DNA of 64,000 nt from Bacteroidota bacterium (GCA_003246455.1 QKAF01000009.1:85395-149394); one strand, 5' to 3'. Numbered from the stretch's first letter, positions 40,201 to 60,415 are shown. Numbers and translations: made by a program. Notes: generated by a model from the letters alone, not told the origin.

Positions 40201-42246
40201 ATGAAGAAACTGTTTCTGTTGGCCTTCCTGGTGCTTGCCGCCGGGATGGCTCAGGCACAGCAGGTGACCGTGAAGGCGCCTGAGGCAGCCAGCTCCACTG
40301 CGATCTCGCAGTCCGCAGCGGCAGCCGTCGACTACAAGATGCAATTCATGCCGATTGACGAGCACACCACGTTTCACCGTGACGGCAAAGTCAACCGTAT
40401 GACCAAGGTCACGGAAAAGCATGGACTGACTGAAATCGGTCTCATGGCCAACACCTACGCGATGATCGGCGACAACCGCAGTCAGATCGCCTACGATCCG
40501 AAAACCAACACTGTTGCAAGCGTGTACCGCGGCAACGACCGCGGCAGCGCGAACGGCGACGGCAACACCCTGTACGTCCGTTACTCCGCCGACGGTGGCG
40601 TGAACTGGACCCCGCAGGGCGACAACGTGGCGACGTCCACGATGCCCCGCTACCCGAACATCTTCCTGCACTGGGACGGCAGCAAGGCGAACACCGCCCT
40701 CATGTGGCCGCAGGTCGACCGTTTCAACGACGGCACCACCGGCTGGCGCGATATCTACTCGATGAAGAGCGATATCGGCAACGCCAACGCCCAGTACGGC
40801 ATTTCCCCGAGTCCGCCTTACTGGTCGATTCCCTACCTGACCGTTCCCGATCAGAGCACGGGCGACCTTTACAACATGGCTCTCGGTATCGAGCCCACTT
40901 CCGCTGAAGCGTCGACCGGCGAAATCTACCTGCTTCGCTCCTCCGACGGCGGTCTGAACTGGGCCCCGGTGACTTTCGATGCGCCGGTGTTCACCGCGGA
41001 CATGGTCCCCAACGGGTATTTCTCCTCGAACCTCCGTCTCGACATCAGCCCCGACGGCAGCACGATGATCATGGCCTTCGCGCTCATCATCGAAAGCGAG
41101 CCCGGCAGCGCGTTCCTTCTCGACGAGAATCATGAGGTCGCATGGCGCATTTCCAACGACAAGGGAATGACCTGGGGTCCGCTCCAGCGCTTCCGCCCGG
41201 CCGACATCCAGAACAAGCCCGCCCCCTTCGACGCGAAGTGGGAAATGTCGTGGGATTTCGACGTTGTGCTCGATTATCAGAATCGCCCGCACTTCCTGAC
41301 CGTCGGTTCCGCAGACATCTATCCGTTCAGCCCGTTCAACGACGCGCCGACGGATTCCACGATCAGCCTCACGAGTGTTGATTCCACCTTCACGACGGAA
41401 ATCACGTATTACGAAGAAGGCGGCAACCGCGAATGGGCAATGTTCCCCATCGGTCCCGCACGCCGCGTGCGCACCGACCGCATGTCCTTCACCGCCGGTT
41501 CCTCCACCAGCGCTCCCGCCATCTTCCGCAACGAGCCCAAGTGGGCCCGCAGCTATGACGGCAAGAAAATCTATGCGAAATGGATCAGCCCGATCACCTC
41601 GTGGCGCGTCGCCCTCGTGGCAGGCACCCCGACGCTGTTCGCAGACACCCTGAGCCAGATCTATGCCAACGGCCGCCATGTCGACAGCCGTGCAGTCTCC
41701 GCATGGACCTACTACTGGCCGTACGGAAACCCCGAGCAGGTCACGAACGAAATGGACAGCCTCATGCGTATGACCGCGATCGAGGAAGTCATGACCAAGT
41801 ACAGCAAGCTGGCCTATTACGCCAGTGACGCCGGCGACCTCCACATGGTATTCGTGGAATGGGGTATCGGCGAAACCGTCGATGACGATCCCGTCAACAC
41901 CGATCAGGTCGTCTGGTACGTGCAGGATGCAAAAGTCCCCGTTCCCGACGTCGCCTCCGTTGAGGAAATCGACGCCACTCCTGGTGACTTCAAGCTCTCG
42001 CAGAACTATCCCAACCCGTTCAACCCGAGCACCGAAATCACCTTCACACTGCCGCAGGCCGGCCAGACAATGCTTCGCGTCTACAACTTGCTCGGTCAGG
42101 AAGTCGCCACGCTGGTCAACGAGTACCGCAACGCAGGCACGCACCGCGCGACCTTCGACGCCACCTCCCTGCCCACCGGCATGTATATCTATCGCCTCGA
42201 GAGCGGTTCCTTCACCGCCTCGCGCAAGATGATGCTCAGCAAGTAA
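40201..42246 (+). CDS. BNR/Asp-box repeat (sialidase-like beta-propeller) secreted protein with a T9SS C-terminal domain – paralog A
   Basis: Signal peptide MKKLFLLAFLVLAAGMAQAQ. Asp-box motifs SADGGVNWTP, SSDGGLNWAP, SNDKGMTWGP (SxDxGxxW). C-terminus LSQNYPNPFNPSTEITFTLP… is a T9SS CTD. Confidence 0.8.
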   Translation: MKKLFLLAFLVLAAGMAQAQQVTVKAPEAASSTAISQSAAAAVDYKMQFMPIDEHTTFHRDGKVNRMTKVTEKHGLTEIGLMANTYAMIGDNRSQIAYDPKTNTVASVYRGNDRGSANGDGNTLYVRYSADGGVNWTPQGDNVATSTMPRYPNIFLHWDGSKANTALMWPQVDRFNDGTTGWRDIYSMKSDIGNANAQYGISPSPPYWSIPYLTVPDQSTGDLYNMALGIEPTSAEASTGEIYLLRSSDGGLNWAPVTFDAPVFTADMVPNGYFSSNLRLDISPDGSTMIMAFALIIESEPGSAFLLDENHEVAWRISNDKGMTWGPLQRFRPADIQNKPAPFDAKWEMSWDFDVVLDYQNRPHFLTVGSADIYPFSPFNDAPTDSTISLTSVDSTFTTEITYYEEGGNREWAMFPIGPARRVRTDRMSFTAGSSTSAPAIFRNEPKWARSYDGKKIYAKWISPITSWRVALVAGTPTLFADTLSQIYANGRHVDSRAVSAWTYYWPYGNPEQVTNEMDSLMRMTAIEEVMTKYSKLAYYASDAGDLHMVFVEWGIGETVDDDPVNTDQVVWYVQDAKVPVPDVASVEEIDATPGDFKLSQNYPNPFNPSTEITFTLPQAGQTMLRVYNLLGQEVATLVNEYRNAGTHRATFDATSLPTGMYIYRLESGSFTASRKMMLSK

Positions 42247-42462: not shown

Positions 42463-42598
42463 AAGATCCGCTGTAACCACTCATACTTTCTCGTGTCTAG
42501 TCGGGGAACATCGGATGCAGCCGGGGGCCGATCCGCGTTCGCCAGCGACAATCCTTCTCCTACATACAGCCTTTTCCTTACACCAGCCGGAGTTTCCC

Positions 42599-44662
42599 AT
42601 GATGAAGAAACTGGTTCTGTTGGCCGTTCTGGTACTTGTTCCTGGATTGGTCCTGGCACAGAGGGTGAACGTGAAGTCGCCGGAGGCATCGGACAGGAAT
42701 GCCATCGTACAGTCCGCTGCGCGCACCGTCGACTACCGGATGCAGTTCATGCCCGTTACCGAAAAAACGACGCTGCATCGTACGCAGAAGTCCGCGGGCC
42801 TGCGAAAGCCGGCGGAGCGATACGGGCTCACCGAAATCGGAAATATGGCGAACACTTACGCGATGGTCGGCGACAGCCGCAACCAGATCGCATACGATCC
42901 GAACACCAATACCGTTGCGGTGGTCTACCGCGGCAACGATCGCAGCTCAACGAACGGAGACGGGAACACCCTGTACGTCCGCTATTCCACAGATAACGGC
43001 GCGCACTGGACCTCCTCAGGCGACAACGTGGCGAGTTCCACAACACCGCGCTACCCGAACATCTTCCTGCACTGGGACGGCAGTCAGACGGGCACCGCCC
43101 TGATGTGGCCGCAGGTCGACCGCTTCAACGACGGCACCACCGGTTGGCGCGACATCTATTCGATGAAAAGCGATATCGGCAACGGGAACGCCCAGTACGG
43201 CATTGTTCCCGATCCTCCCTTTTGGTCGATCCCTTACCTGACGGTCCCTGATCAGAGCACGGGTGACCTCTACAACATGGCACTCGGCATCGAGCCCACT
43301 TCCGCTGAGGCGTCGACCGGCGAAATCTACCTGCTTCGCTCCACCGACGGGGGGCTGAACTGGACCCCGGTAACTTTCGATGCGCCGGTGTTCACCGCGG
43401 ACATGGTCCCCAACGGGTATTTCTCCTCGAACCTCCGTCTCGACATCAGTCCCGACGGCAGCACGATGATCGTGGCCTTCGCACTGATCATAGAAAGCGA
43501 GCCCGGCAGCGCGTTCCTCCTTGACAAGAATCATGAAATCGCATGGCGTATCTCCACGGACAAGGGTATGACCTGGGGTCCGCTGCAGCGCATGTGGCCG
43601 GGCGACATCAAGAACAAGCCCGCCCCCTTCGACGCGAAATGGGAAATGTCGTGGGATTTCGACGTCATACTCGATTACAAGAATCGCCCGCATTTCCTGA
43701 CCGTTGCCTCCGCCGACATCTATCCGTTCAGCCCATTCAACGACGCGCCGACGGATTCCACCATCAACCTGAGCAGCGTCGACTCCACGTTCGCGACCGA
43801 GATCACCTACTATGAGGATGGCGGGGAACGCGAGTGGCGTATTTTCCCCATCGGACCGGTTCGCCGCGTGCGGATCGACCGAATGTCCTTCACATCCGCC
43901 TCCGCCACCGATTCGCCGGAGATGATCCGCAACGAACCGAAGTGGGCCCGCAGCTGGGACGGGAAAAAGATCTATGCCAAATGGATATCCCCGATGTCTT
44001 CGTGGACCGTCGCCCCGGTGGCCGGCACCCCGACGCTGTTCGCCGACTCCCTCTATCAAATCTACGTCAACGGGCGCCACGTCGACAGTAAATCCGTTCT
44101 CGCATGGACCTACGCATGGCCGTTCGGCTACCCCGACGCGGTGACCCCCGAGATGGACGCCGACATGCGAATGACCGCCACGGAAGACGTGATGACCAAG
44201 TACACGAAGATGGCGTACTACGCCGGCGAGGATGGCTCCCTGCACATCATTTTCGTCGAATGGGGAATCGGCGAGACCCTCGACGACGATCCCGTCAACA
44301 CCGACCAGACCGTCTGGTATTGCGGGACGAGCGGCGAAGGCGCGTTCGTCGTATCGGTGCCGTATGTTCTCGACGTCGAGCAGATCGACGATGTGCCGGG
44401 TGATTTCACCCTTGCACAGAACTACCCCAATCCGTTCAACCCGAGCACGGAAATCACCTTTACGCTTCCGAAAGACGGTCAGACGACGCTCCGCGTCTTC
44501 AACCTACTCGGCCGGGAAGTCGCCACACTCGTCCGTGAGTACCGCAGCGCCGGGACCCATCGCGTGACCTTCGATGCAAGCGCCCTGCCGACCGGCATGT
44601 ACGTCTACCGGCTCGAGAGCGGGCCTTTCACCGCATCCCGGAAAATGATGCTCGGCAAGTAG
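42599..44662 (+). CDS. BNR/Asp-box repeat secreted protein with a T9SS C-terminal domain – paralog B (about three-quarters identical to paralog A)
   Basis: ATG at 42599 (MMKKLVLLAVLVLVPGLVLAQ) follows GGAG. Long blocks match paralog A, for example YSMKSDIGN.NAQYGI…, HFLTV.SADIYPFSPFNDAPTDSTI. Asp-boxes STDNGAHWTS, STDGGLNWTP, STDKGMTWGP. C-terminal LAQNYPNPFNPSTEITFTLP… The 5' part of the six-frame ORF (42515-42598) is not supported. Confidence 0.8.
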   Translation: MMKKLVLLAVLVLVPGLVLAQRVNVKSPEASDRNAIVQSAARTVDYRMQFMPVTEKTTLHRTQKSAGLRKPAERYGLTEIGNMANTYAMVGDSRNQIAYDPNTNTVAVVYRGNDRSSTNGDGNTLYVRYSTDNGAHWTSSGDNVASSTTPRYPNIFLHWDGSQTGTALMWPQVDRFNDGTTGWRDIYSMKSDIGNGNAQYGIVPDPPFWSIPYLTVPDQSTGDLYNMALGIEPTSAEASTGEIYLLRSTDGGLNWTPVTFDAPVFTADMVPNGYFSSNLRLDISPDGSTMIVAFALIIESEPGSAFLLDKNHEIAWRISTDKGMTWGPLQRMWPGDIKNKPAPFDAKWEMSWDFDVILDYKNRPHFLTVASADIYPFSPFNDAPTDSTINLSSVDSTFATEITYYEDGGEREWRIFPIGPVRRVRIDRMSFTSASATDSPEMIRNEPKWARSWDGKKIYAKWISPMSSWTVAPVAGTPTLFADSLYQIYVNGRHVDSKSVLAWTYAWPFGYPDAVTPEMDADMRMTATEDVMTKYTKMAYYAGEDGSLHIIFVEWGIGETLDDDPVNTDQTVWYCGTSGEGAFVVSVPYVLDVEQIDDVPGDFTLAQNYPNPFNPSTEITFTLPKDGQTTLRVFNLLGREVATLVREYRSAGTHRVTFDASALPTGMYVYRLESGPFTASRKMMLGK

Positions 44663-46371: not shown

Positions 46372-46379
46372 TAATTTTG
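46372..46379 (+). promoter_or_regulatory. Bacteroidota-type -7 promoter element candidate (TAATTTTG = TAnnTTTG) upstream of gdh copy 1
   Basis: Exact TAnnTTTG match ~60 bp upstream of the gdh ATG, inside an AT-rich tract (46314-46438) in an otherwise GC-rich window. Confidence 0.3.
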
Positions 46380-46438: not shown

Positions 46439-47779
46439 ATGTCTACCGCACTGAACGACTTCATGCAGGAAGTCAAAGCCAAGAACCCCGGAGAAGCCGA
46501 GTTTCATCAGGCAGTTGAAGAAGTTGTCGAAACGCTGATGCCGGTTGTTGAAAAGCAGCCGGAATATCGCAAGGCCAAGGTTCTTGAGCGCATGGTCGAA
46601 CCCGAGCGCACCATTTCTTTCCGTGTTCCCTGGGTCGCCGATAACGGAGAAGTCCGCGTCAACCGCGGCTACCGCATCGAGTTCAACAGCGCCATCGGTC
46701 CCTACAAGGGCGGTCTGCGGTTCCACCCGAGTGTCACCCTGAGCATTCTGAAGTTCCTCGGCTTCGAGCAGATCTTCAAGAATTCCCTCACGACGCTCCC
46801 GATGGGCGGCGGAAAGGGCGGTTCGGACTTCGACCCGAAGTTCAAATCGAAAAACGAAATCATGCGTTTCTGCCAGAGCTTTATGAGTGAACTGTTCCGT
46901 CACATCGGCCCGAACACCGACGTGCCCGCCGGCGATATCGGCGTGGGTGGACAGGAAATCGGTTTCATGTTCGGCCAGTACAAAAAGCTGAAAAATTCAT
47001 TCGACGGCGTGCTGACGGGTAAAGGCCTGAGCTGGGGCGGATCCCTCATCCGTCCGGAAGCGACCGGCTTCGGCGTCACCTACTTCGCCAATGAAATGCT
47101 CAAGACCAAGGGCCAGTCCTTCGAAGGCAAGACCGTCGCCATCTCCGGCTTCGGAAATGTCGCCTGGGGCGCGGCGATCAAGGTCAACGACATGGGCGGC
47201 AAGGTCGTCACGCTTTCCGGTCCCGACGGATACATCTTCGACCCCGCCGGCATCTCCGGTGAGAAGATCGAATACATGCTGGAGCTCCGCGCGAGCAACC
47301 AGGACATCGTCGAGCCGTATGCCGAGCGCTTTGGCGTGGAATTCATCCCCAACAAGCACCCGTGGGAAGTCAAGTGCGACGTCGCACTCCCCTGCGCGAC
47401 CCAGAACGAACTCAACGAGGAAGACGCGAAGAACCTGCTCGCAAACGGCTGCATCTGCGTATGCGAAGGCGCGAACATGCCCACCACTCCGGAAGGCGCG
47501 AAGCTGTTCCTTGATGCCGGTCTGCTCTACGGACCTGCCAAGGCGGCGAACGCCGGTGGCGTGGCCGTGTCGGGTCTCGAAATGTCGCAGAACTCCATCC
47601 GCATGAGCTGGTCGCGTGAAGAGGTGGATCAGCATCTGCATCGCATCATGAAGAATATCCACCAATCCTGCCTCGACGCCAGTGCTCAGTACGGCATGGC
47701 AGGGAATTACGTTGCCGGTGCAAACATTGCCGGATTCACGAAAGTGGCCGACGCCATGCTCGCCCAAGGCATCGTATAA
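46439..47779 (+). CDS. gdhA: NADP-specific glutamate dehydrogenase (GdhA type, 446 aa) – copy 1
   Basis: MSTALNDFMQEVKAKNP…[10 protein letters not shown]…[15 protein letters not shown]…[14 protein letters not shown]… are the canonical hexameric GDH (E. coli GdhA-like) blocks. Confidence 0.95.
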   Translation: MSTALNDFMQEVKAKNPGEAEFHQAVEEVVETLMPVVEKQPEYRKAKVLERMVEPERTISFRVPWVADNGEVRVNRGYRIEFNSAIGPYKGGLRFHPSVTLSILKFLGFEQIFKNSLTTLPMGGGKGGSDFDPKFKSKNEIMRFCQSFMSELFRHIGPNTDVPAGDIGVGGQEIGFMFGQYKKLKNSFDGVLTGKGLSWGGSLIRPEATGFGVTYFANEMLKTKGQSFEGKTVAISGFGNVAWGAAIKVNDMGGKVVTLSGPDGYIFDPAGISGEKIEYMLELRASNQDIVEPYAERFGVEFIPNKHPWEVKCDVALPCATQNELNEEDAKNLLANGCICVCEGANMPTTPEGAKLFLDAGLLYGPAKAANAGGVAVSGLEMSQNSIRMSWSREEVDQHLHRIMKNIHQSCLDASAQYGMAGNYVAGANIAGFTKVADAMLAQGIV

Positions 47780-47799
47780 TCCTGCTCCCCCAGGAATGC

Positions 47800-47830
47800 A
47801 AAACCCGGCCGCAAGGCCGGGTTTTGTGTT
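47800..47830. terminator. Bidirectional terminator between convergent gdhA copy 1 and the receiver–PEP-binding gene
   Basis: AAAACCCGGCC-gcaa-GGCCGGGTTTT followed by GTGTTT. Confidence 0.65.
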
Positions 47831-47851
47831 TATGGTCGAATATGCGGCGCG

Positions 47852-50800
47852 CTATGCATGCACTTCGCCGGTCATCTCCTCGTCTTCCTTTTCCTTCTTG
47901 AACACCACCCCTGAACCGCTCTGCCCGTCGACGAGGATCTCGAGACGGTGCGGCGCGCGAACATGACGCACGTACGCGGTTTCGCCGACGATCTCGAGCG
48001 AATCGAGCCACGCCCAGTCGATGGTGTCCTCCGCCTTGTAGTGACGGGTGGTGAAATACGCGATGTGGAAAGAGGTGAGGTTCTGGAAAAAATGCGACCC
48101 CTGCGACGGATCCGGGAGCATATTCGGAAGCGACGTTTCGACGATGGCATGCGCCCCGGAAATCCCCGGGAAGCGGACCGGGATGCCCAGCCAGGGATCG
48201 GCGGAACCCCAGCGCCCCGGACCGATAAGCAGATAGGGACGCTGCTCCTCGACGAGACGCTTGTTGATTTCCGCGATCTCATTGGCCATTTCCTTCGTGC
48301 GCGCATTTTCGAAACTGTCGGGCTTCACGTAGACGATATCCCGCAGCCGGTAAATGCCGTTACCGAGCACGTTCTCGCTCTTCAGCAGCAGTTCCTCACG
48401 CCGGAGGTTTGCGAAGTCGATCTCGACGGTGCCCTCTTCCTTGACCATCGGACGCACCTGGAGGAAATCGAATTCGCTGATATCGTCGAAGTGCCGGCCG
48501 AGCACGCCCGCAAATTCGATTTCCACCGGACAGTTCATCGCCGTTTCGCAGAGTTCCATGAGCAGCCGCAGCACCTTCGCCAGCGGAATATATTCCGACT
48601 GCAGGATCGGCGCGAAATTCACGACGCGGAGTCCTTTCCGGAACGTGCCCTCGTATAGCGAATCGTCCTCTGTGCAGAACGTCGACGCGAGATAGTCGAT
48701 CGTGCCGTACTCCTCGGCGACTTTCATGTCGAGGAAATCCAGGTTTTCGTCCTCGCTCGGATCCTCTTCGAGCGGATGCGACTCGAGGTTCACGGCGAAG
48801 AACTTCTTCTGCGAATTGGTGTAATAGTCCTTCCGCGTGGCGAACTGCGGCATGATCGTCGGATACTGGGGGCAGAACTGCGCGCTGACCCCGCCGTCGA
48901 CGATGGTCTTGCCCAGCCCCACGGCGAGATTCACGATGCCGTCGGCCTGCCGGGCGTCGCCGAACGGGTAGTAGTTGAACGAGCGCGCGACCCCGGAGTA
49001 ATGCGGATAATAATGGTGCTTGTAGCGGCGGCCCGACATCTCCTGGATGATCACCGCCATCTGCTCTTCCTCGAGTCGATGGCCAGTGGCCTCGATGTAG
49101 TTTTTCGCGCCGCGGAGATAGGTCGACGCGTACACGTACTTGATCGCCTGTTCAAGCTCCTGGAATCGCGCGTACGGATCGGGATTGCTGTTCGGAAGCA
49201 TGACCGTGGCATAGATCCCGGCGAACGGCTGATACAGCGTATCCTCGAGAAGACTCGAAGACCGGATCGCGAGCGGATGCTGATTGCGCAGCACGACCGC
49301 GCGCAGATCCTCTTCGATCGTGTTCGGGAAACGGGCGTGCATGAAAAGGCTGACGATTTCCTCGTCGGGGATGTTCTGAATCACCTGCGGAAGCAGGTTG
49401 TTCAGCTCCATGAACTGCACGAAGACCTCGGTACAGAGGATGATGCTCCGAGGAATCTTGATGCGGACATTCGGGAAATACGACGGATGCAGGTAATTCT
49501 TCAGGATGTTGTCGATGAACGCCAGGCCGCGGGCCTTTCCGCCGAGGGACCCCCGGCCGATGCGCAGGAACGTGGCGCGGGAATCGAATTCCTCGTGCGA
49601 GAAATCCGCGATCAGCCCGCGCTCGTCATAGATCACGAGTTCGTCGATTTTCCGGATGATATACCGGCGCAGCGACTCGATGGTCTTGAATTCGGTGATC
49701 TTCACCGGCTTGATTTCCTGCGCCAGCCGGAAACGGGTGCGCGCCAGCAGCCAGTTGCTGAAATGATCCCGCGACGCATGGAAGAGCAGCGAATCGTCGG
49801 GAATCGTATGCAGCCGCTGGCGCAGCTGCCGGATCGTCCGCGCACGGTCGACCTCGGTTCCGTCCGGCATACGGAAGATGAACTCCCCGAAGCCGAAATT
49901 CGTGAGCATGAATTCGCGGACCTCCTGCAGCAGCGTGCGGGAATTCTTGTTCGCGAACGCGGCATCCAGCGCGTCGACCTCGTCGCGAAGATCCTCGCGC
50001 GAGGACTGCACGAGAACGGGGAGCTCCGGACTGTGTTCGCGCACCCGCCGGATGTACTTGAGTCCTGCGAATTCGTCTTCGATATCGTTGATCGGGAACT
50101 TCAGGTCGGTGATGATGCCCAGGAGTTCGTTTCGGTACTTGTGGTAGTAGCGCCATGCCTGCTCGAAATTGGTCGCGTGCAGGATCTTGGGCCGCGCGCG
50201 CTGCCGCAGGAGCTTCTCGGCGAAATTCTTGCCCTCCTCGATCAGCATCTGCCCCTGCTTGATCAGTTCGGTGTAGATCAGCGGCAGGAACGACGAGTAG
50301 AACTGCGGCGAATCCTCGACGAGAATGATGGCGCGAACCCCGAAATCCTTGCAGTCGATGCGCGCATTGGCCAGATCCTCGAGCTGCTTGATAATGGCGA
50401 GAAACAGTTTGCGGTCGCCCGACCAGACGAAGACCCGATCGAACAGATTCAGCGCGCCCTGGTTCATCAGCACCTGCAGTTCCCGGCTCTGGTAGCCGAG
50501 CAGCGCCACGGGCACGTCGGCATGCGCTTCCTTGACCGCCTGACAGAAATCCTGCAGGCGCATGTCGCCGAGGCGCATCATGGTGATGACCAGGTCGAAG
50601 CGGCTCTCATCCATCGCCGCGAGCGCGGCCTCTCCCGAGTAGACCCGCGTGATCGACGGGGCGTAATGCAGATTCAGTTCGAGGTACTCGCTGAAAATCG
50701 CCTCGGTGAGCTGCCCGTCGTCGACCAGGGTATAGAAGTCGTAGCGGCTCGATACGAGCAGGATGTTGTTGACGCGGAAGCGCATCAGATCCTTGAAATC

Positions 50801-50890
50801 CAGGTCGTGCGGACTGATATCCTTGTCGGAAAACCCGAAATCCAGAATGAGGTCGCGCAGCTCGTCGCGCTTGATCCTTTTGCGTTTCAT
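47852..50890 (-). CDS. Multidomain protein: N-terminal pseudo-receiver plus receiver-like (CheY-fold) domains fused to a PEP/pyruvate-binding ATP-grasp nucleotide-binding domain (PPDK_N-like) and a conserved C-terminal module – copy 1 (1012 aa)
   Basis: Minus-strand ATG at 50890 (MKRKRIKRDEL…). Receiver-like segments (…RFRVNNILLVSS…FDLVITMMRLGDM… and …RAIILVEDSP…LGIITDLKFP…PVLVQSS…). PPDK_N hallmark …FLRIGRGSLGGKARGLAFI… and …LAIRSSSLLED…. C-terminal …LLIGPGRWGSADPWLGIPV…SQGSHFFQNLTSFHIAYF…. Confidence 0.8.
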   Translation of the reverse strand: MKRKRIKRDELRDLILDFGFSDKDISPHDLDFKDLMRFRVNNILLVSSRYDFYTLVDDGQLTEAIFSEYLELNLHYAPSITRVYSGEAALAAMDESRFDLVITMMRLGDMRLQDFCQAVKEAHADVPVALLGYQSRELQVLMNQGALNLFDRVFVWSGDRKLFLAIIKQLEDLANARIDCKDFGVRAIILVEDSPQFYSSFLPLIYTELIKQGQMLIEEGKNFAEKLLRQRARPKILHATNFEQAWRYYHKYRNELLGIITDLKFPINDIEDEFAGLKYIRRVREHSPELPVLVQSSREDLRDEVDALDAAFANKNSRTLLQEVREFMLTNFGFGEFIFRMPDGTEVDRARTIRQLRQRLHTIPDDSLLFHASRDHFSNWLLARTRFRLAQEIKPVKITEFKTIESLRRYIIRKIDELVIYDERGLIADFSHEEFDSRATFLRIGRGSLGGKARGLAFIDNILKNYLHPSYFPNVRIKIPRSIILCTEVFVQFMELNNLLPQVIQNIPDEEIVSLFMHARFPNTIEEDLRAVVLRNQHPLAIRSSSLLEDTLYQPFAGIYATVMLPNSNPDPYARFQELEQAIKYVYASTYLRGAKNYIEATGHRLEEEQMAVIIQEMSGRRYKHHYYPHYSGVARSFNYYPFGDARQADGIVNLAVGLGKTIVDGGVSAQFCPQYPTIMPQFATRKDYYTNSQKKFFAVNLESHPLEEDPSEDENLDFLDMKVAEEYGTIDYLASTFCTEDDSLYEGTFRKGLRVVNFAPILQSEYIPLAKVLRLLMELCETAMNCPVEIEFAGVLGRHFDDISEFDFLQVRPMVKEEGTVEIDFANLRREELLLKSENVLGNGIYRLRDIVYVKPDSFENARTKEMANEIAEINKRLVEEQRPYLLIGPGRWGSADPWLGIPVRFPGISGAHAIVETSLPNMLPDPSQGSHFFQNLTSFHIAYFTTRHYKAEDTIDWAWLDSLEIVGETAYVRHVRAPHRLEILVDGQSGSGVVFKKEKEDEEMTGEVHA

Positions 50891-51025
50891 GCATACTCCC
50901 GTTTTGGGGTCAGAACCTATGAATCAATCTACGGATGGAGGCAGCGGAGCGCAAGCTGGGCGCGGAAAAGTTTTTTCCTGACGGGATTTTCCGCATTTTC
51001 GTATTACAGTGATTCGGATTTACTT

Positions 51026-51066
51026 GTAGGGTATTCCCTACATAACTCATGGCGCATTCCCTACAT
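51026..51066. promoter_or_regulatory. Palindrome GTAGGGTATTCCCTAC plus a direct repeat of ATTCCCTACAT in the divergent intergenic region between the receiver–PEP-binding gene (copy 1) and gdhA copy 2
   Basis: Palindrome at 51026-51041. ATTCCCTACAT at 51033-51043 and again at 51056-51066, inside a 388-bp non-coding region that is AT-rich compared with the rest of the window. Confidence 0.3.
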
Positions 51067-51197
51067 CTTGAGATATGGAATGATTGTACTTTTGAGTCAC
51101 GTAATTTCAAATTCATGGGTCTTAAACCCTTTTTCTCGAGCCTGAAAGCGGAACCGGATATCGTCTTCTCCAGTATTGACTGCTATACACTTCATAA

Positions 51198-52622
<1,425 letters not shown>

Positions 52623-52645
52623 TCCCATTCCACCCTCTTCCTTGC

Positions 52646-52684
52646 AAAACGCCCCGCCGCTTCTGCGACGGGGCGTTTTCATTC
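52646..52684. terminator. Bidirectional terminator between convergent gdhA copy 2 and the second receiver–PEP-binding gene
   Basis: AAAACGCCCCGCCGC-ttct-GCGACGGGGCGTTTT followed by CATTCTTT. Confidence 0.65.
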
Positions 52685-52709
52685 TTTCCGATCCTTCCGC
52701 GGCGCGCTT

Positions 52710-55700
52710 CTATGACCCGTTTCGCAGCGTCTGCTTCAGCACCGCCCCGTTGCCGGTGTGGCCGTCCACCAGGATGGTGATATCCTCCGGCGGACGCACG
52801 TGGCGCGTGTGACGCGTCTCCTCGATACAGTCGAGACTGTCGAGCCAGCTCCAGTCGATAGCGTGTTCCTCGTTGTAGTGACGGAGCGTGAAGTACGCGA
52901 TGCGGAAGGACGTGAGGTTCTGAAAGAAGTGCGACCCCTGTGAAGGATCGATGATCATGTTCGGCAGCGTGGTTTCCACGATGGCGCGCGCGGCGGAAAT
53001 GTCGGAGAAAACCACCGGGATGCCCAGCGACGGATCGCTGCTCCCCCAGCGTCCGGGACCGATCAGCAGGTACGACCGGCGCTCGTGCAGCAGGGAGTGG
53101 TTGATCGCACTGATCTCCCCGACCATCTCCCGCGTTTTCATCGCGTCGAACGTGTCCGGCTTGACGTATACGATGTCACGGACTCGCGAAATCCCGTTCC
53201 CGAGCGCCTTCTCGCAGCGGAACAGGAGCTGCTCGCCGGGCAGCGCCTCGATATCGAGATTCGCCCCGGACTCCTGCTTCACCATCGGTCGAAGCTGGAG
53301 AAAACTGAACTCGGCCGGGAGCGGCGTTCCGCTGCCGAGCCGCACCGCGAATTCAATCTCGACCGGCGCGTTCACAGCGGTCTCGCACATGTTGACGAGC
53401 AGCTTGATCACCTGGTTCAGCGGGATGATCTCCGATTTGAGTATGGGAGCGAAAGTCAGGATGCGCGGACCGCTTCGGCTCATTCCCTCGTACAGCCGGT
53501 CATCCTGTCCGGAATACGTGCTGGCCACATGCGTCAGCGTCCCGTGCGCTTCCGCGTCCTTGAGTTCCAGTTCCGCCAGGTTCTGGTCCTCCCGCGGGTA
53601 TTTCCGGATGATATCCGACTGCAGGTCGAGCGCGAAAAACTTCAGCTGGGAATTGTGAAACAGATCCCGTGTCGTGCCGAACTGGGGATACACCGTCGGG
53701 TACGCGGGCGAGAACTGCAGGCTGGTCCCGCCGTCCACGATCGTCTTTCCGAGTCCCAGCGCGAGATTGACGACACCGTCCTTCTGCGTCGCCTTCCCGA
53801 AGGGATAGTAATTGAAAGACCGGGCGACGCCGGAAACGCGCGGATAGAAATACCGTCCGTGCCGCGTTCCCACCATCTCCTGGATGATCACCGCCATCTT
53901 TTCTTCTTCGATGCGGTTCGAAGTCGCCTCGATATAGTTCTTCGCCTGGCGGAAGTACGTGGAGGCGAACACGTACTTGATCGCCTGCAGGAGATTGTGG
54001 AAGCGTACCGAGATGTCCGGACTGCTGTTCGGTATCATGATCGTGGCGTAGATCCCCGCGAACGGCTGGTACATCGCATCCTCCAGCAGCGAGGAGGAGC
54101 GTATCGCCAGCGGGAAACGGGCCTTGTCGAGGATCGCGCGCAGATCGCCCAGGATCGTCGGCGGAAGGTCCGCGTGGAGGAAGGCCCGGAGGATTTCCTG
54201 GTCGGAAACGTTCTGCACAGCGACGGAAAGCAGGTCGTTCTGCTCGACGAATTCCGCGAACACATCCGTTCCGAGCACGATGGTGCGCGGAATGGAGATG
54301 CGCATGTTGGGGAAATAATCGGGTTCGAGATATTTCCGGAGCAGATTGTCCGTGAAGGCGAGACCGCGGCCCTTCCCGCCAAGCGACCCGGAACCGATGC
54401 GAAGGAAAGTGTCTTCCGCGTCATATTCGCCGCGGGCGAAATCCGAGATCACCCCTTTCTGATCCTGCACGAGCTGTTCGTTGATCGCCATGATCAGGTA
54501 CGCCCGCAATTCGTCGATGGAGGGGAACTGGGTGACCTTCACCGGCTTCAGGCGGTTCGACAGTTCGAAGCGCGTTCGCGCCTTAAGCCAGTTGCTGAAG
54601 TGATCGCGCGATGCGTGGAACTCGAGGCAGGCGTCGGGGACGAGGTGGAGACGTTCGCGCAGTTCGCGCAGGTTTCGCGCCCGCGTGACCTCGCTGCCGT
54701 CGGGCATGCGGAAGATGAAATCTCCGAAGCCGAAGTTGTCCTTCATGAAATCGCTCAGCGACTGCAGCAGCATACGCGAGTTCTTGTCGACGAAAGACAT
54801 TCCCTCGCGCTCGATTTCGAGACGCAGTTCGGTGTTGGAAGACTGCACGAGGATCGGGAGTTCGGGATTGTCCGCGCGTACGAGACGGGCCAGTTTGAGT
54901 CCCGCCGGTTCCTCGTCGTTCCCCGCTCCGGGGAATGTCATGTCGGCGATGATGCCGAGCATGGTTCTCCGGTATTTCTCATAGAACGCGACGGCTTCCT
55001 CGAAGGAGCGCGCGAGAAAGATTTTCGGACGGGCCCGCTGCCGAAGCAGCTTGTCCGCGAAGTTCTTCCCTTCCTCGATCAGGTCCTGCACCTGCTGGAT
55101 CAGGTCGGCATACATGAGCGGGAGATACGAGGAATAAAACCACGGCGAATCCTCCACGAGAAGAATCGTGCGCACTCCGAATTCCAGGCAGTCGACGGGC
55201 GCGTTGCGCAGATCCTCGAACAGCTTGATCAGCGCGAGGAACAGCTTCCGGTCGCCCGACCAGACGAATACGTTGTCGAAACAGGTCGTATCGATCGTCT
55301 TGAGGAACATTTCGAATTCGGCGGAGGGAAACGAGAGCAGCACCATCGGAATTTCAGGATGCTGCCGCTTAACCGAAGTGCAGAACGATGCGAGATCCAT
55401 GTCCCCGAGACGCAGCATCGAGATGACGAGGTCGAAATCCTGCGACTCGAGCAGACGCAGGGCCGCTTCACCCGAATTCACCCGGACGATATGCGGCGCA
55501 TAGTGCAGGTTCAGTTCGGTGTACTCGTTGAAAATGGCCTCGGTCAGCTGGCCGTCCTCCACGAGGGTGTAATAGTCGTACAGGCTGGAGACAAGCAGGA
55601 TGTTGTTGATGCGGAAACGCATCAGATCGCGAAAATCGAGCTGCCGCGTGCGCGGAACAGCGTCACCGACCACGTGGAGTCTGATCAGGTCGGTGACTTC

Positions 55701-55727
55701 GTCAATATTTGTGGACCATGACTTCAT
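52710..55727 (-). CDS. Receiver–PEP/pyruvate-binding (PPDK_N-like) multidomain protein – copy 2 (1005 aa), paralog of 47852-50890
   Basis: Minus-strand ATG at 55727 follows AAGAGGA. Same architecture as copy 1 and roughly two-thirds identical to it: …RFRINNILLVSSLYDYY…, …RTILLVEDSP…LGIIADMTFP…, …FLRIGSGSLGGKGRGLAF…, …LIGPGRWGSSDPSLGIPV…SQGSHFFQNLTSFRIAYF… It sits 28 bp downstream of the third dehydrogenase gene on the same strand, suggesting co-transcription. Confidence 0.8.
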   Translation of the reverse strand: MKSWSTNIDEVTDLIRLHVVGDAVPRTRQLDFRDLMRFRINNILLVSSLYDYYTLVEDGQLTEAIFNEYTELNLHYAPHIVRVNSGEAALRLLESQDFDLVISMLRLGDMDLASFCTSVKRQHPEIPMVLLSFPSAEFEMFLKTIDTTCFDNVFVWSGDRKLFLALIKLFEDLRNAPVDCLEFGVRTILLVEDSPWFYSSYLPLMYADLIQQVQDLIEEGKNFADKLLRQRARPKIFLARSFEEAVAFYEKYRRTMLGIIADMTFPGAGNDEEPAGLKLARLVRADNPELPILVQSSNTELRLEIEREGMSFVDKNSRMLLQSLSDFMKDNFGFGDFIFRMPDGSEVTRARNLRELRERLHLVPDACLEFHASRDHFSNWLKARTRFELSNRLKPVKVTQFPSIDELRAYLIMAINEQLVQDQKGVISDFARGEYDAEDTFLRIGSGSLGGKGRGLAFTDNLLRKYLEPDYFPNMRISIPRTIVLGTDVFAEFVEQNDLLSVAVQNVSDQEILRAFLHADLPPTILGDLRAILDKARFPLAIRSSSLLEDAMYQPFAGIYATIMIPNSSPDISVRFHNLLQAIKYVFASTYFRQAKNYIEATSNRIEEEKMAVIIQEMVGTRHGRYFYPRVSGVARSFNYYPFGKATQKDGVVNLALGLGKTIVDGGTSLQFSPAYPTVYPQFGTTRDLFHNSQLKFFALDLQSDIIRKYPREDQNLAELELKDAEAHGTLTHVASTYSGQDDRLYEGMSRSGPRILTFAPILKSEIIPLNQVIKLLVNMCETAVNAPVEIEFAVRLGSGTPLPAEFSFLQLRPMVKQESGANLDIEALPGEQLLFRCEKALGNGISRVRDIVYVKPDTFDAMKTREMVGEISAINHSLLHERRSYLLIGPGRWGSSDPSLGIPVVFSDISAARAIVETTLPNMIIDPSQGSHFFQNLTSFRIAYFTLRHYNEEHAIDWSWLDSLDCIEETRHTRHVRPPEDITILVDGHTGNGAVLKQTLRNGS

Positions 55728-55755
55728 GGATCATCCTCTTCCGCCGGTCGGCTGC

Positions 55756-57042
55756 TCAAACCCAGCCGCGCATCTTGCAGGCTTCCGCGACGCGCGCGAT
55801 CGCGATCATATAGGCCGCGTCCCGCATCGGGATGTTCCGGCGATGCGCCATCTGCGAAACGGCAAAGTATGCATCGGTCATCTTGGTGTCGAGCTTCGCG
55901 ATCACTTCGTCGCGCGTCCAGTAGTAGTTCATGTTGCTCTGCACCTGCTCGAAGTAACTGCAGGTGACGCCGCCGGCGTTTGCAAGGAAGTCCGGGATGA
56001 GCCATATGCCTTTCTCCCGTATGACCGCGTCCGCCGCGGGAGTGGTCGGACCGTTGGCGCCCTCCGCGACGATGCGGACACCGTTCTTCATTCCCTTGAC
56101 CGTGTCGCGGTTCACCTGGTTCTCCATCGCCGCAGGGATGAGGACATCCACTTCCTGCTCGATCCAGGCGTCGCCCGGGAGCACTTCGTACCCGGCATCC
56201 GCGGCCTTGTCGCGGCTGATCTCTCCGTAGGAGTTCGTCATCGCGCGCAGCTGCCTGAGGTCCACGCCGTCTTTTTTTCTCACCGTGAAGGCCGCCTGTG
56301 CTTTCTGATCCCAGCTGGCGACGCTGATCACCTTTCCGCCGTAGGAGTGGAAGAGATCGATGGCGTGCTGTCCGACGTTGCCGAATCCCTGCACCGATGC
56401 GGTACTGTCTTCGATTCGCAGATTCATTTCCGCGAGCGCTTCGCGCACTGCGTAAATCACGCCGTAGCCGGTCGACTCGGTGCGGCCGAGCGACCCGCCC
56501 AGCCCGATGGGCTTGCCCGTGATGAATCCGGGGGCATGTTTCCCCGTGAGCGTCTCGTATTCATCCAGCATCCAGAGCATGTGCTGCGCGGATGTCATCA
56601 CGTCGGGTGCGGGCACGTCGCGGTCGGGTCCGACGCTTTCGACGATATTGCGCACCCAGCCGCGACAGAGTGCCTCCTGCTCTCGCAGCGAAAGGTTGTG
56701 CGGATCGCAGATGACGCCCCCTTTCCCGCCGCCGAGCGGAATGTCGACGACCGCCGTCTTCCAGGTCATCCACATCGAGAGCGCCCGCACGGTGTCGACG
56801 GTCTCCTGCGGATGGAAGCGCACTCCGCCTTTACAGGCGCCGCGCGCGTCATTGTGCTGGATGCGGAATCCGCGGAACACCTGGTAGCTTCCGTCGTCCA
56901 TGCGGATCGGGATGTTGAAGTGAAATTCCTTTGCCGGCGTGCGCAGCAGCGCACGGGTCGCTTCGTCAAGTCCGAGCTGTTCCGCAATCGTATCGAACTG
57001 CTGCTGCGCCATACGGAACGGGTTGAATGCTTCGCCACTCAT
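55756..57042 (-). CDS. Glu/Leu/Phe/Val dehydrogenase family protein, short (~428 aa) GDH type, probably NAD(P)-glutamate dehydrogenase – third GDH-family gene
   Basis: ATG at 57042 follows AGGAGA. MSGEAFNPFRMAQQQFD… with …GACKGGVRFHP…DIPLGGGKGGV…GPDRDVPAPDV… The 5' part of the six-frame ORF (57043-57168) is not supported. Confidence 0.9.
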   Translation of the reverse strand: MSGEAFNPFRMAQQQFDTIAEQLGLDEATRALLRTPAKEFHFNIPIRMDDGSYQVFRGFRIQHNDARGACKGGVRFHPQETVDTVRALSMWMTWKTAVVDIPLGGGKGGVICDPHNLSLREQEALCRGWVRNIVESVGPDRDVPAPDVMTSAQHMLWMLDEYETLTGKHAPGFITGKPIGLGGSLGRTESTGYGVIYAVREALAEMNLRIEDSTASVQGFGNVGQHAIDLFHSYGGKVISVASWDQKAQAAFTVRKKDGVDLRQLRAMTNSYGEISRDKAADAGYEVLPGDAWIEQEVDVLIPAAMENQVNRDTVKGMKNGVRIVAEGANGPTTPAADAVIREKGIWLIPDFLANAGGVTCSYFEQVQSNMNYYWTRDEVIAKLDTKMTDAYFAVSQMAHRRNIPMRDAAYMIAIARVAEACKMRGWV

Positions 57043-57187
57043 GCCTTGTCTCCTGGACGGTACGAAATCGGGTGGAACGGCCGCGCTCCGCAGCCCGCGA
57101 AGATGCGTCCTGAGCAGGCAAGGTATCATTTTTCCCCGGAATTTCCCTATTTTCATCCTGATCTCCACTGTTCACGGGCAGGATGCG

Positions 57188-60100
57188 ATGAACATGAACA
57201 AGAAGGAAAAATCCCTCGGCGACCTGCTGTATGCCCTCGGAGAGCGCGCCAAGGAACTGAACTGCCTCTATCATGTCGAGGAAGTTCTCTCGCGGAACGA
57301 TGCGGCGCAGGAAGAGGTGCTCAATGGAATCATCGCGGCCATCCCGCCGGGATGGCAGTTTCCGGACATCTGCCGCGTCCGAATCCGCCTCGGGAATAAA
57401 TCCTTCACCTCCCCGGAATTCCAGCCCACACAATGGAAGCTCGTTTCCTCCATCGTCGTTCAGGACAAGGTGGAGGGCAGCATCGAAGTCTACTACGCGC
57501 GCGAAGTCGGCACCGCGGACGAGGGGCCCTTCCTGCATGAAGAGCGGAAGCTGATCAACACCATCGCAGAGCGCATCGGACACTATCTCCTCCATCAGCA
57601 GCTCAGGCATGTCTTCAACGAATGGCAGACACTCAAGGAGCAGCTCGCCGAGAACAAGCGGCCGGAGTGGAAAGTCATCCTGGAAATGCTGCGCCGCACC
57701 GATCAGAACCTCTACACGCGCATTTCACGGAAGATGCTGAACCGCCTCTGCTGGTCGGGCATCAAAACCGCCTGCGAATTGATGCAGCGTTTCGGCACGC
57801 GCAACGGGGACAGCCAGGACGTCTTCGGCGAAAGCAACCGTCCCCGGCAGCGCGAGGAGCTCTACAACTTCATGTCGTCGAGCGATGAAATCTTCCAGAT
57901 AGCGGCCGAACATCTCAGCGACGAAGAAATCCTGTCACTGATCCAGAAGTGGATCAAGGACGACAAGGCGTCCTTCCTTGTCAACACGGTCGAGAATCTC
58001 GACACCTCTCTCTCCGAGATCGTCGACGCCATCGGCCGTTTCTACCATATTTTTCCTGAAGGAATTGAACTCTCGCCGTCAACCGAAAAGGGCCTGCGGG
58101 TCTCGCTGATCCGGCGATTCTTCACCGAACAGCTTCCGTACATCAATGTCGCGAAGCAGTACCTCGAGGTGCGCGATTTCGCGGAGCTCGTACGCCGCAT
58201 CATCTTCCATCAGAAAAGCCACGGGAAACTTGGGGGGAAAAGCTCGGGGCTGTTCCTCGCGGGACAGATCCTCATGAAGGAAGGCGGGGAAAGCGGCCGC
58301 TTCCCGAACGTCCGCATTCCGAAGACCTGGTACATCACATCAGACGGCATCCTGAATTTCATCCATTACAATAACCTGGAAGAGGTCTTCAACCAGAAGT
58401 ATCTCGACATCGAGCAGGTGCGCGAGGAATACCCGTCGATCATCCAGGTGTTCAAGAACTCCTATTTCTCCCCGGAATTCATCAAGGGGCTGACGATGGC
58501 GCTGGACGATTTCGGCGACATCCCCCTGATCGTCCGCAGTTCCTCGCTGCTCGAAGACAGCATGAACGCCGCGTTCTCCGGGAAATACAAAAGCCTCTTT
58601 CTCGCGAATACCGGGACGAAAGCCGAGCGGATGGCCGCGCTGCTCGATGCCATCGCGGAAGTGTATGCTTCGACTTTCGGTCCCGATCCCATCGAGTACC
58701 GCGCCGAACGCGGGCTGCTCGATTTCCACGAAGAGATGGGCATCATGATCCAGGAGGTCGTCGGCACGCGCATCGGCCGGTATCTCATGCCGGTATGGTC
58801 GGGCGTCGCGTTCAGTCACAACGAATTCCGCTGGTCGCCGCGCATCAAACGGGAAGACGGCCTGATCCGGCTCGTGCCGGGACTCGGGACGCGCGCGGTG
58901 GATCGCGTGGGAGACGATTATCCCGTGCTCATCGCACCGGGACAGCCGTCGCTCCGCGTGAACATAACACCGGATGAGATTGTCCGTTATTCTCCCAAGA
59001 AAATCGACGTCATCAATCTCGAGAGCAGCAGCTTCGAGACCGTCGATATTCTCGACCTGCTGCGTGAAACCGGACATTCCTACCCGGGCATCAACACCAT
59101 CGTCTCGCAGTATGACGGCGACACCATCCGTCAGCCGTTCGGCTTCGACCTCGATTTCGAAAAGAGCGTGTATGCGGTGACGTTCAACGGACTGATCGCC
59201 AGCACGCGCTTTCTCAAGAATATCCGGGAAATGCTGCTGCTGCTGCAGGAACGCCTCCAGACGCCCGTGGACATCGAATTCGCGTCCGACGGCAGGGACC
59301 TGTACCTCCTGCAGTGCCGGCCGCAGAGTTTCACCCGTCACAATATTCCGGCACCGATCCCGCAGGACATTCCGCGCGAACGGAAGCTGTTCACGGCGCA
59401 GCGCTACATATCGAACGGACACGTGCCCGACATCACGCATATCGTCTACGTCCATCCCGACAGGTACGCCGCCCTGCCCGACCGACAGGCGCTGCTGTCC
59501 GTCGGACGCTGCGTCGGGCGCCTGAACAAGGTTCTGCCCAAGCGCCAGTTCACCCTGATGGGTCCCGGCCGCTGGGGCAGCCGCGGCGACATCAAGCTGG
59601 GGGTGAACGTGACCTACTCCGATATCAACAACACCGCCCTGCTTGTCGAAATTGCGCACGACCTCGGCGGCTACCTCCCCGACCTCTCTTTCGGCACGCA
59701 CTTCTTCCAGGATCTCGTCGAGTCGTCGATCCGCTATCTGCCGCTGTATCCCGACGAGGCGGATGTCCATTTCAACGAAGCCTTCCTGACGCGCAGCAAA
59801 AACATTCTGGCGGACATCCTCCCCGATTACGCGTTTCTGTCCGACACGGTGTTCGTCATCGACGTCAGTGCGAGCAGCGGCGGGAAAATTCTCCGCGTGC
59901 TGATGAATGCGGAAATCGAACAGGCGGTGGGCTATCTCGAGGACCCGGTCAACGTTCAGCCGGAACCGCAGGACTTTCCCGCACCCGTGCAGCGCACCGT
60001 CGAGGATCACTGGGAATGGCGGCTGCGCATGGCCGAACGGCTCGCCAACGATCTCCATCCGGAGGACTTCGGCATCAAGGGACTGTATATCTTCGGGAGC

Positions 60101-60370: not shown

Positions 60371-60415
60371 CGAAATTCAGATCGGAACGATTTTCCGGGT
60401 TTTCCCCGGCCCGGC

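Follow-up and report, generated by a model that had tools for sequence, protein, structure and literature searches.

Introduction

Glutamate dehydrogenase (GDH) stands at the junction of carbon and nitrogen metabolism, and the post-translational control of the bacterial enzyme is much less understood than that of glutamine synthetase. Glutamine synthetase is controlled by GlnE/GlnD through nucleotidylylation, the modifying enzyme having a nucleotidyltransferase of the Pol-beta fold. Work of the 1980s reportedly described a reversible inactivation of GDH in vivo in Bacteroides fragilis, mentioned here as background and not as evidence. The subject of this report is a GDH locus in a 64,000-nucleotide stretch of DNA from a Bacteroidota bacterium (GCA_003246455.1, QKAF01000009.1:85395-149394), referred to as the window, with all positions counted from its first letter along one strand, 5' to 3'. 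In this locus GDH genes stand beside genes for three proteins with a PPDK_N ATP-grasp core, the large paralogs RRP1 and RRP2 and a further protein designated P3NT. A described protein of similar plan is VadK (Rv1127c) of Mycobacterium tuberculosis, a truncated PPDK that retains only the ATP-binding and phospho-histidine domains, which autophosphorylates on His422, pulls down methylcitrate synthase and dehydratase and was proposed to regulate the metabolic enzymes that it binds (PMC13400623).

RRP1 and RRP2 were likened to VadK by architecture and by an invariant histidine (His933), both kinds of protein placing a His-bearing domain after a PPDK-type ATP-binding domain and lacking a phosphoenolpyruvate (PEP)/pyruvate TIM barrel. 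Unlike VadK, they have a helical linker and two N-terminal receivers, their C-terminal domain cannot be recognised as a PPDK swivel domain, and their partner, judged by gene neighbourhood, would be GDH in place of the methylcitrate-cycle enzymes. The best matches to the ATP-grasp core were rifampin phosphotransferase (RPH, 5hv2) and HpeHI (9goj), with Foldseek E values of 1.4e-10 and 1.8e-09, profile E values of about 1e-4 and nucleotide-binding motifs in common, but in the RRP proteins a rifampin- or substrate-binding domain is missing, a PEP-utilizers swivel domain is not detectable, receivers are added and the scores stay far below the cutoffs. The N-terminus follows the REC-REC (receiver-receiver) plan of PleD, with one receiver competent and the other degenerate. 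The order is reversed with respect to PleD, the second receiver keeping the Asp on our reading of the alignment, and the output is an ATP-grasp core instead of a GGDEF domain. GlnE/GlnD offer a functional analogy only: P3NT has a nucleotidyltransferase of the Pol-beta fold without sequence membership in that system, the PPDK_N core has no counterpart there, and adenylylation of GDH would likewise be only an analogy. We class the RRP-type proteins with response regulators with enzymatic outputs and with truncated dikinase regulators.

A literature search covering GDH-RRP pairing, DUF5752, response regulator-PPDK_N proteins and GDH inactivation in Bacteroides returned nothing relevant. The coupling of GDH and RRP appears undescribed, and the gene families, though annotated, are uncharacterised.

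Organisation of the locus

Positions 46439-61276 are best explained as a whole as a seven-gene glutamate dehydrogenase control locus and not as a simple duplication of two modules, a reading to which we assign a probability of roughly 55%. Two GDH genes of the GdhA type and a third of a short class are interleaved with the three PPDK_N-core proteins and followed by a metallophosphoesterase. RRP1, RRP2 and P3NT have a common core, in which the PPDK_N ATP-grasp domain is followed by an uncharacterised domain of ∼190 residues with an invariant S-x-G-x-H motif.

The gene gdhA1 (46439-47779, + strand) encodes an NADP-type GDH of 446 residues of the 'type-1' GdhA subtype (Pfam, NCBIfam and trees) and is followed by RRP1 (47852-50890, - strand; 1012 residues). 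The gene gdhA2 (51279-52622, + strand) encodes an NADP-type GDH of 447 residues of the 'type-2' GdhA subtype (Pfam and NCBIfam) and is followed by RRP2 (52710-55727, - strand), a paralog of RRP1 with 1005 residues and the same architecture (alignment, Pfam and sister clades). Beyond RRP2 lie gdh3 (55756-57042, - strand), encoding a short-class GDH of 428 residues (Pfam, translation and start codon), P3NT (57188-60370, + strand; 1060 residues) and, convergent with P3NT, the gene for a calcineurin-like metallophosphoesterase of 286 residues (60416-61276, - strand). Both ELFV_dehydrog_N and ELFV_dehydrog (Pfam PF02812 and PF00208) were found in GDH1 and GDH2, the products of gdhA1 and gdhA2, with E values below 1e-50. 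The two proteins scored 746 and 780, respectively, against the NCBIfam equivalog NF006929 (NADP-specific GdhA; cutoff 536) and belong to that family.

Linkage of GDH genes to PPDK_N-core proteins

The RRP family gave more than 6,000 matches, labelled 'histidine kinase', 'CheY-like' or 'PEP/pyruvate-binding'. Relatives occur in at least 597 species-representative genomes, the carriers including Bacteroidota, Ignavibacteria, Acidobacteriota, Gemmatimonadota, Eisenbacteria, Zixibacteria, Calditrichia, Desulfobacterales and Bdellovibrionota. Linkage was assessed for 88 RRP genes, which came from 80 loci of species-representative genomes spread over many phyla (sampled relative loci are given L-numbers below). 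A GDH gene was found within 700 bp of 46 of the 88 RRP genes and within 10 kb of 12 more; the remainder lay on truncated contigs (14/88) or had no GDH gene nearby (16/88). The layouts recurred, most often with gdhA directly upstream on the same strand (26 genes), then in a convergent arrangement (10) and with short-class gdh3 directly downstream on the same strand (8). Among cultured carriers, relatives of Ignavibacterium album and Melioribacter roseus have predicted operons of gdhA followed by RRP (L026 and L039).

The linkage of GDH genes to PPDK_N-core proteins is strong and phylogenetically broad. An earlier, preliminary description of this region had suggested that the GDHs work with PPDK_N partner proteins; conservation of the gene neighbourhood across many phyla strongly favours that suggestion, which if anything was understated. 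Loci lacking a GDH gene showed no other recurrent partner, the neighbours of RRP there being assorted unrelated housekeeping genes, and no GDH-RRP fusion was present among the best 150 matches to the C-terminal domain. The two longest single-core proteins left unexplained were also scanned, and their N-terminal extensions received no assignment.

Architecture of the RRP proteins

RRP1 is composed of a pseudo-receiver, a receiver, a helical linker, a PPDK_N ATP-grasp domain and an uncharacterised C-terminal His-bearing domain, as judged from Pfam, alignments, an AF2 model and Foldseek. Pfam returned Response_reg, a weak match to DUF5752 (in RRP1 placed in the linker) and PPDK_N for RRP1 and RRP2 alike. 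The AF2 model of RRP1 had a predicted local distance difference test score (pLDDT) of 85.5 and a predicted template modelling score of 0.71, and its N-terminus was a PleD-like tandem receiver (Foldseek E about 1e-8).

The fold of the first receiver-like domain was detected by Pfam at residues 55-136. It has S47-S48 at the acidic-pair positions and M104 at the acceptor position, a combination that does not fit a receiver (PF00072), and the motif alignment suggests a pseudo-receiver. The second receiver (residues ∼185-320) has the residues of PF00072: in 89 sequences, E192, D262 and K315 never vary, and the conservation of D193 and S296 is 90% or higher. D262 aligns with Asp51 of the NCBIfam PhoP and PmrA models, the residue mapping being read from the alignments.

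The PPDK_N domain (PF01326) was assigned in the three proteins with E values of 4e-37, 1e-39 and 2e-58. Invariant ATP-grasp motifs in RRP are GGK.RG, RSSSLLED, IQEM, E.EF and LQ.RP, of which RSSSLLED and IQEM align to rifampin phosphotransferase. The ATP site and the second receiver are thus both competent-looking in their motifs. None of the three PPDK_N proteins reached any curated NCBIfam cutoff. A PEP/pyruvate TIM barrel (PF02896) was absent from the Pfam results of RRP1, RRP2 and P3NT and from the AF2 model of RRP1, and because RRP has no such barrel it cannot be a PEP synthase, an identity that was rejected.

The C-terminal domain of RRP1 (residues 826-1012, window 47855-48415) is an alpha/beta domain of ∼190 residues that was modelled alone at a pLDDT of 90.3. 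It has invariant GPGRWG and S-x-G-x-H motifs, and E918, S929, G931, H933, F934 and Y945 are invariant and common to the RRP and P3NT subfamilies. At 50% identity, about 2,300 clusters contain the domain. Its local pattern of a strand ending in E, a loop and S-x-G-x-H at a helix start presumably recalls the phospho-histidine site of PPDK-type swivel domains, a likeness short of demonstrated homology.

gdh3, P3NT and the metallophosphoesterase

The gene gdh3 ends 28 bp before the start codon of RRP2 on the same strand, and the two genes form a probable operon. Its product has both ELFV domains and reached no equivalog cutoff, the best being GdhA_Arch (447 vs 750). P3NT is divergent from gdh3 and has, by Pfam, an N-terminal region without assignment, PPDK_N (E = 1.7e-58), the C-terminal His-bearing domain of the RRP proteins and a Pol-beta-type nucleotidyltransferase. 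Its core matches residues 407-946 of RRP1 at 29% identity, and the C-terminal GPGRWG...G(S/T)HFFQ lies within the shared part. The nucleotidyltransferase at the C-terminus (NTP_transf_2, PF01909; 33.5 vs a cutoff of 21) has the motif GSTKNG...DIDLLV and belongs to the Pol-beta family, with the activity predicted accordingly. The phosphoesterase was assigned to PF00149 (E = 1.9e-10, score 41.9 vs a cutoff of 21.5) and has the metal-binding motifs D-L-H-G, G-G-D, G-N-D-D and G-H-I-H. It is 59% identical to its homolog in L104, and a sequence search gave no relative in the PDB.

An independent sample of 80 metagenome loci was fetched with P3NT (L090-L169). An operon recurred in these loci, consisting of gdh3, a receiver-less RRP-like core (581 residues, 45% identical to RRP residues ∼420-996) and P3NT, often with gdhA alongside, and a convergent phosphoesterase gene was located within 400 bp of P3NT in 39 of the 64 loci with enough downstream sequence. 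Natural core-P3NT fusions exist (P0241-P0243). In L104 (3306-16023), which is typical of the sample, the order is gdhA (-), then gdh3, the 581-residue receiver-less core and P3NT, then a phosphoesterase (-), an OmpR-type regulator (-), a 480-residue REC-REC-like protein (-) and a 556-residue protein with weak PPDK_N similarity (-). Since clusters of this type encode them separately, the regulatory and catalytic parts can be separate polypeptides.

Comparison of the two gdhA-RRP pairs

The preliminary description had placed gdhA1/RRP1 (46439-50890) and gdhA2/RRP2 (51279-55727) in the same order and orientation. The open reading frames lie exactly as placed there, and the pairs are colinear: a pairwise alignment at the DNA level, proposed in the same description, gave a single colinear blastn match of 46439-50791 to 51279-55628 (69.4% over 4412 nt). 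The GDH identity, put at about three-quarters, was 328/447 (73%), in agreement with that figure; the identity of RRP1 and RRP2, put at about two-thirds, was lower (605/999, 61%, gapless). Synonymous sites are saturated in the GDH pair and in the RRP pair (dS, synonymous substitutions per synonymous site, about 1.1-1.2), so that dating of the two pairs by dS is uninformative.

A putative bidirectional hairpin terminator is located between the convergent genes of each pair, at 47800-47830 for gdhA1-RRP1 (AAAACCCGGCC-GCAA-GGCCGGGTTTT) and at 52646-52684 for gdhA2-RRP2 (sequence and folding). Both are near-perfect G+C stems, at 47800-47825 and 52646-52679, with AAAA and TTTT on the flanks. The folding z-scores of the first were -4.8 (+ strand) and -2.7 (- strand); those of the second were about -3 on both strands. 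A bidirectional terminator role is plausible because each hairpin has an A-run and a T-run on its flanks. The two had been described as matching GC-rich terminators; both hairpins are real, but they are alike in design only and their stem sequences are unrelated.

Phylogeny and synteny

RRP1-type and RRP2-type proteins formed two sister clades, with an identity of 58% between them and of 42-43% to every other lineage. The RRP1 clade, the RRP2 clade and L006 were recovered together with a bootstrap of 100/100. Among quartet-informative columns, 10 favoured the pairing of RRP1 with RRP2 and 0 opposed it, and both RRP copies are kept in the relatives L002, L003, L005, L083, L084 and L087. RRP1 and RRP2 are lineage-specific sister paralogs, and the large-protein half of the duplication claimed in the preliminary description holds. 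From trees and synteny, a single duplication of RRP would have taken place at the root of this Bacteroidota/Ignavibacteria-related lineage. The results support the view that the two gene pairs are paralogous and ancient.

Trees were built by neighbour joining only, and the deep backbone of the GDH tree is unresolved. The GDH1 clade (the window, L002, L003, L085 and L086) joined the RRP-adjacent GdhA of Ignavibacteriales, Bdellovibrionota and Bacteroidales, and GDH2 joined the main GdhA set. The bootstrap for this split was 190/200; with more taxa and a GDH3 outgroup it was 89-90%, and under other distance corrections 73-83%. A signature motif reads NQDIVEPYA in GDH1-type proteins, foreign type-1 GdhA included, versus RRGRIKEYA in GDH2-type proteins. 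More than 65 Ignavibacterium-type GDH clusters scored nearer to GDH1 than GDH2 did. For an identity-versus-identity calibration, restricted to orthologs, GDH identity was 77-83% in all 21 in-lineage comparisons at an RRP identity below 64%, a range that answers to an RRP identity of 60-65%; the paralog pair stands at 60% for RRP and 73% for GDH. With moderate confidence, these comparisons indicate that the GDH pair are not exclusive sister paralogs from the RRP-duplication node and that the genes do not make up a tandemly duplicated two-gene module.

Gene order was compared in the relatives. RRP1 is present with no gdhA1 downstream in L005, L082, L083, L084 and L087, and gdhA1 co-diverges with RRP1 only in the sub-lineage of L085, L086, L002, L003 and the window. 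In L082, L083, L084 and L087, inserted genes separate RRP2 from gdhA2, and gdhA2 remains adjacent to and divergent from RRP1. Directly upstream of RRP2-type genes gdh3 is almost always found, an adjacency seen in L002, L003, L005, L083, L087 and L089. From these insertions and the adjacency of gdh3, three conserved units therefore follow: gdh3 then RRP2; gdhA2 divergent from RRP1; and, in one branch, RRP1 convergent with gdhA1. They differ from the second module of the preliminary description, since gdhA2 stays beside RRP1 when genes are inserted.

The locus is thus read, with moderate confidence, as a mosaic of duplicated RRPs and of GDHs drawn from older paralogs. The conserved partnerships would be gdh3 then RRP2, as an operon, and gdhA2 divergent from RRP1, with a shared control region; gdhA1 would be an older GdhA subtype, which either came to lie downstream of RRP1 in a single sub-lineage or disappeared from the other. 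Read in this manner, the locus would illustrate cleanly how gene pairs that look alike can be mosaics, not copies.

Two loci of Ignavibacteriales, L019 (8421-19583) and L009 (3950-14364), have an independent same-strand array of gdhA (type 1)-RRP-gdhA (type 2)-RRP-gdh3-like. One RRP copy is split into two open reading frames in each, the downstream copy in L019 and the upstream copy in L009, which could reflect a frameshift, a pseudogene or an assembly error.

Control region and candidate promoters

The divergent control region between RRP1 and gdhA2 (50891-51278) has a perfect palindrome, TGTAGGGAATACCCTACA, at 51025-51042 and a second ATTCCCTACAT half-site 23 bp away at 51056-51066. Palindrome and half-site are kept at the orthologous place in L002, L003 and L082, where the flanks have diverged, and from this conservation the palindrome is probably an operator for some regulator. 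Rfam gave no riboswitch or leader-RNA match upstream of the gdhA genes; only sub-threshold matches were returned, and these lay on a terminator hairpin.

TAATTTTG is located upstream of gdhA1 (46372-46379) and TACTTTTG upstream of gdhA2 (51087-51094). Both are candidate boxes resembling what we take to be the consensus of the Bacteroidota -7 promoter box, TAnnTTTG. The one at 51087-51094 would imply a gdhA2 leader of ∼185 nt.

Proposed mechanism and alternative explanations

On the best reading of their domains and neighbourhood, the RRPs may be two-component-controlled, truncated-dikinase-like enzymes that act post-translationally on GDH. A histidine kinase encoded elsewhere would phosphorylate Asp262 in the second receiver of RRP1/RRP2, and phospho-Asp262 would switch on the ATP-grasp core. 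The core would then move phosphate from ATP to its own His933, by analogy with PPDK, PEP synthase, rifampin phosphotransferase and VadK, and bind or covalently modify the neighbouring GDH, setting the balance between the assimilation of ammonia and the breakdown of glutamate. P3NT would contribute nucleotidyl transfer, and removal of the mark would fall to the phosphoesterase. More tentatively, and at well under even odds, the system may be a widespread covalent on/off switch for GDH, in which RRP and P3NT write a phospho- or nucleotidyl-mark that the metallophosphoesterase erases, a GDH counterpart of GlnE/glutamine synthetase with the S-x-G-x-H domain as a new phospho-carrier fold.

The family is large, uncharacterised and genomically tied to GDH genes of three lineages in many phyla of soil, sediment and freshwater bacteria. 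If the proteins do act on GDH, they would represent a new kind of two-component output and bring a new layer of regulation to ammonia assimilation and the catabolism of amino acids, and a function would be provided for database proteins now labelled 'histidine kinase', 'PEP synthase' and 'CheY-like'.

Several observations weigh against the control-locus reading. The functional link of RRP to GDH is argued from gene neighbourhood, and about one third of the sampled RRP genes have no GDH gene within 10 kb, nearly half of these loci being truncated. A domain search of the genes flanking the locus found no histidine kinase or nitrogen-regulator gene. The C-terminal domain had no significant PDB match (best Foldseek E = 0.024, TM-score at most 0.35) and no Pfam match, the PEP-utilizers swivel domain (PF00391) included, for which reason the phospho-histidine role of His933 is proposed by analogy of a local motif. 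As to the history of the genes, the support for GDH1 with type-1 GdhA of other phyla dropped to 60% once the 40-column signature region was removed, and single-copy relatives with a convergent RRP/gdhA unit exist for the RRP2 type (L088) and for the RRP1 type (L085 and L086), so that a duplication of the module with later replacement of one gdhA is conceivable.

The preliminary description had proposed an ancient tandem duplication of a unit of gdhA and RRP. In its strict form, one event would have copied the whole convergent unit and the halves would have co-diverged; in a softer variant, one gdhA would later have been swapped in place for a type-1 gdhA. The shared order and orientation, the colinear DNA at 69% and the sister relationship of the RRPs are all as such an event would leave them, and the convergent units of both RRP clades just mentioned, with others in further phyla (L024, L028, L031, L040 and L078), point the same way, as does the tree with GDH3 as outgroup, where GDH1-type and GDH2-type proteins share one broad region of weak support. 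The sister relationship of the RRPs, together with L006, stands at 100% bootstrap. A single duplication of the whole unit is unlikely in the light of the GDH trees and the synteny: exclusive sisterhood of GDH1 and GDH2 received 0-9% bootstrap vs 60-95% for GDH1 with foreign type-1 GdhA, which has the GDH1 signature motif in common; at equal RRP divergence, orthologs are 6-7 identity points closer than the GDH pair; and five relatives have no gdhA1 downstream of RRP1. The co-diversification of the GDH and PPDK_N proteins, suggested there as a check, was not borne out by their phylogenies, which are incongruent at moderate strength, the outcome that the description itself had named as contradicting it.

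Two further explanations accept the gene linkage and give it another meaning. The PPDK_N proteins could be small-molecule dikinases in the manner of rifampin phosphotransferase, HpeHI, phenylphosphate synthase and PigC, phosphorylating a metabolite of the glutamate/2-oxoglutarate node and not regulating the GDH protein. Small-molecule dikinases or ligases account for all of the nearest solved structures and NCBIfam models (RPH 5hv2, HpeI 9goj, PigC/RedH and PEP synthase), HpeHI shows that the family can act on diverse hydroxyl substrates (PMC12167813), and a link to two GDH classes fits a shared metabolite as well as a shared protein target. The absence of a recognisable substrate-binding domain (TIM barrel or rifampin-binding), a fusion to two receivers, as is typical for signalling outputs, the presence alongside of a Pol-beta nucleotidyltransferase and a phosphoesterase, which suggest a writer/eraser pair, and scores far under every curated family cutoff together make this quite improbable. 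Alternatively, the adjacency could reflect mere shared transcriptional control of nitrogen and amino-acid genes, or chance gene order, with RRP acting neither on GDH nor on its metabolites. This would accommodate the varied orientation of the genes (same strand, convergent and divergent), the RRP genes that lack a nearby GDH gene and the conserved operator-like palindrome, which suggests ordinary transcriptional regulation of gdhA2 and RRP1. We regard it as very unlikely, given that the linkage persists, despite rearrangements, across Bacteroidota, Ignavibacteria, Acidobacteriota, Gemmatimonadota, Eisenbacteria, Zixibacteria, Bdellovibrionota and others, that three GDH lineages and two PPDK_N subfamilies are involved, and that a GDH gene would fall by chance in a 20-kb window very roughly 1% of the time (an estimate from the few GDH genes per genome, not a computed background).

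Neighbouring genes

Sorting tails of the type IX secretion system place the organism in the FCB group. Upstream of the locus, the window contains another tandem pair, two adjacent paralogous BNR/Asp-box genes (40201-42246 and 42515-44662) with type IX secretion system (Por_Secre_tail) sorting domains.

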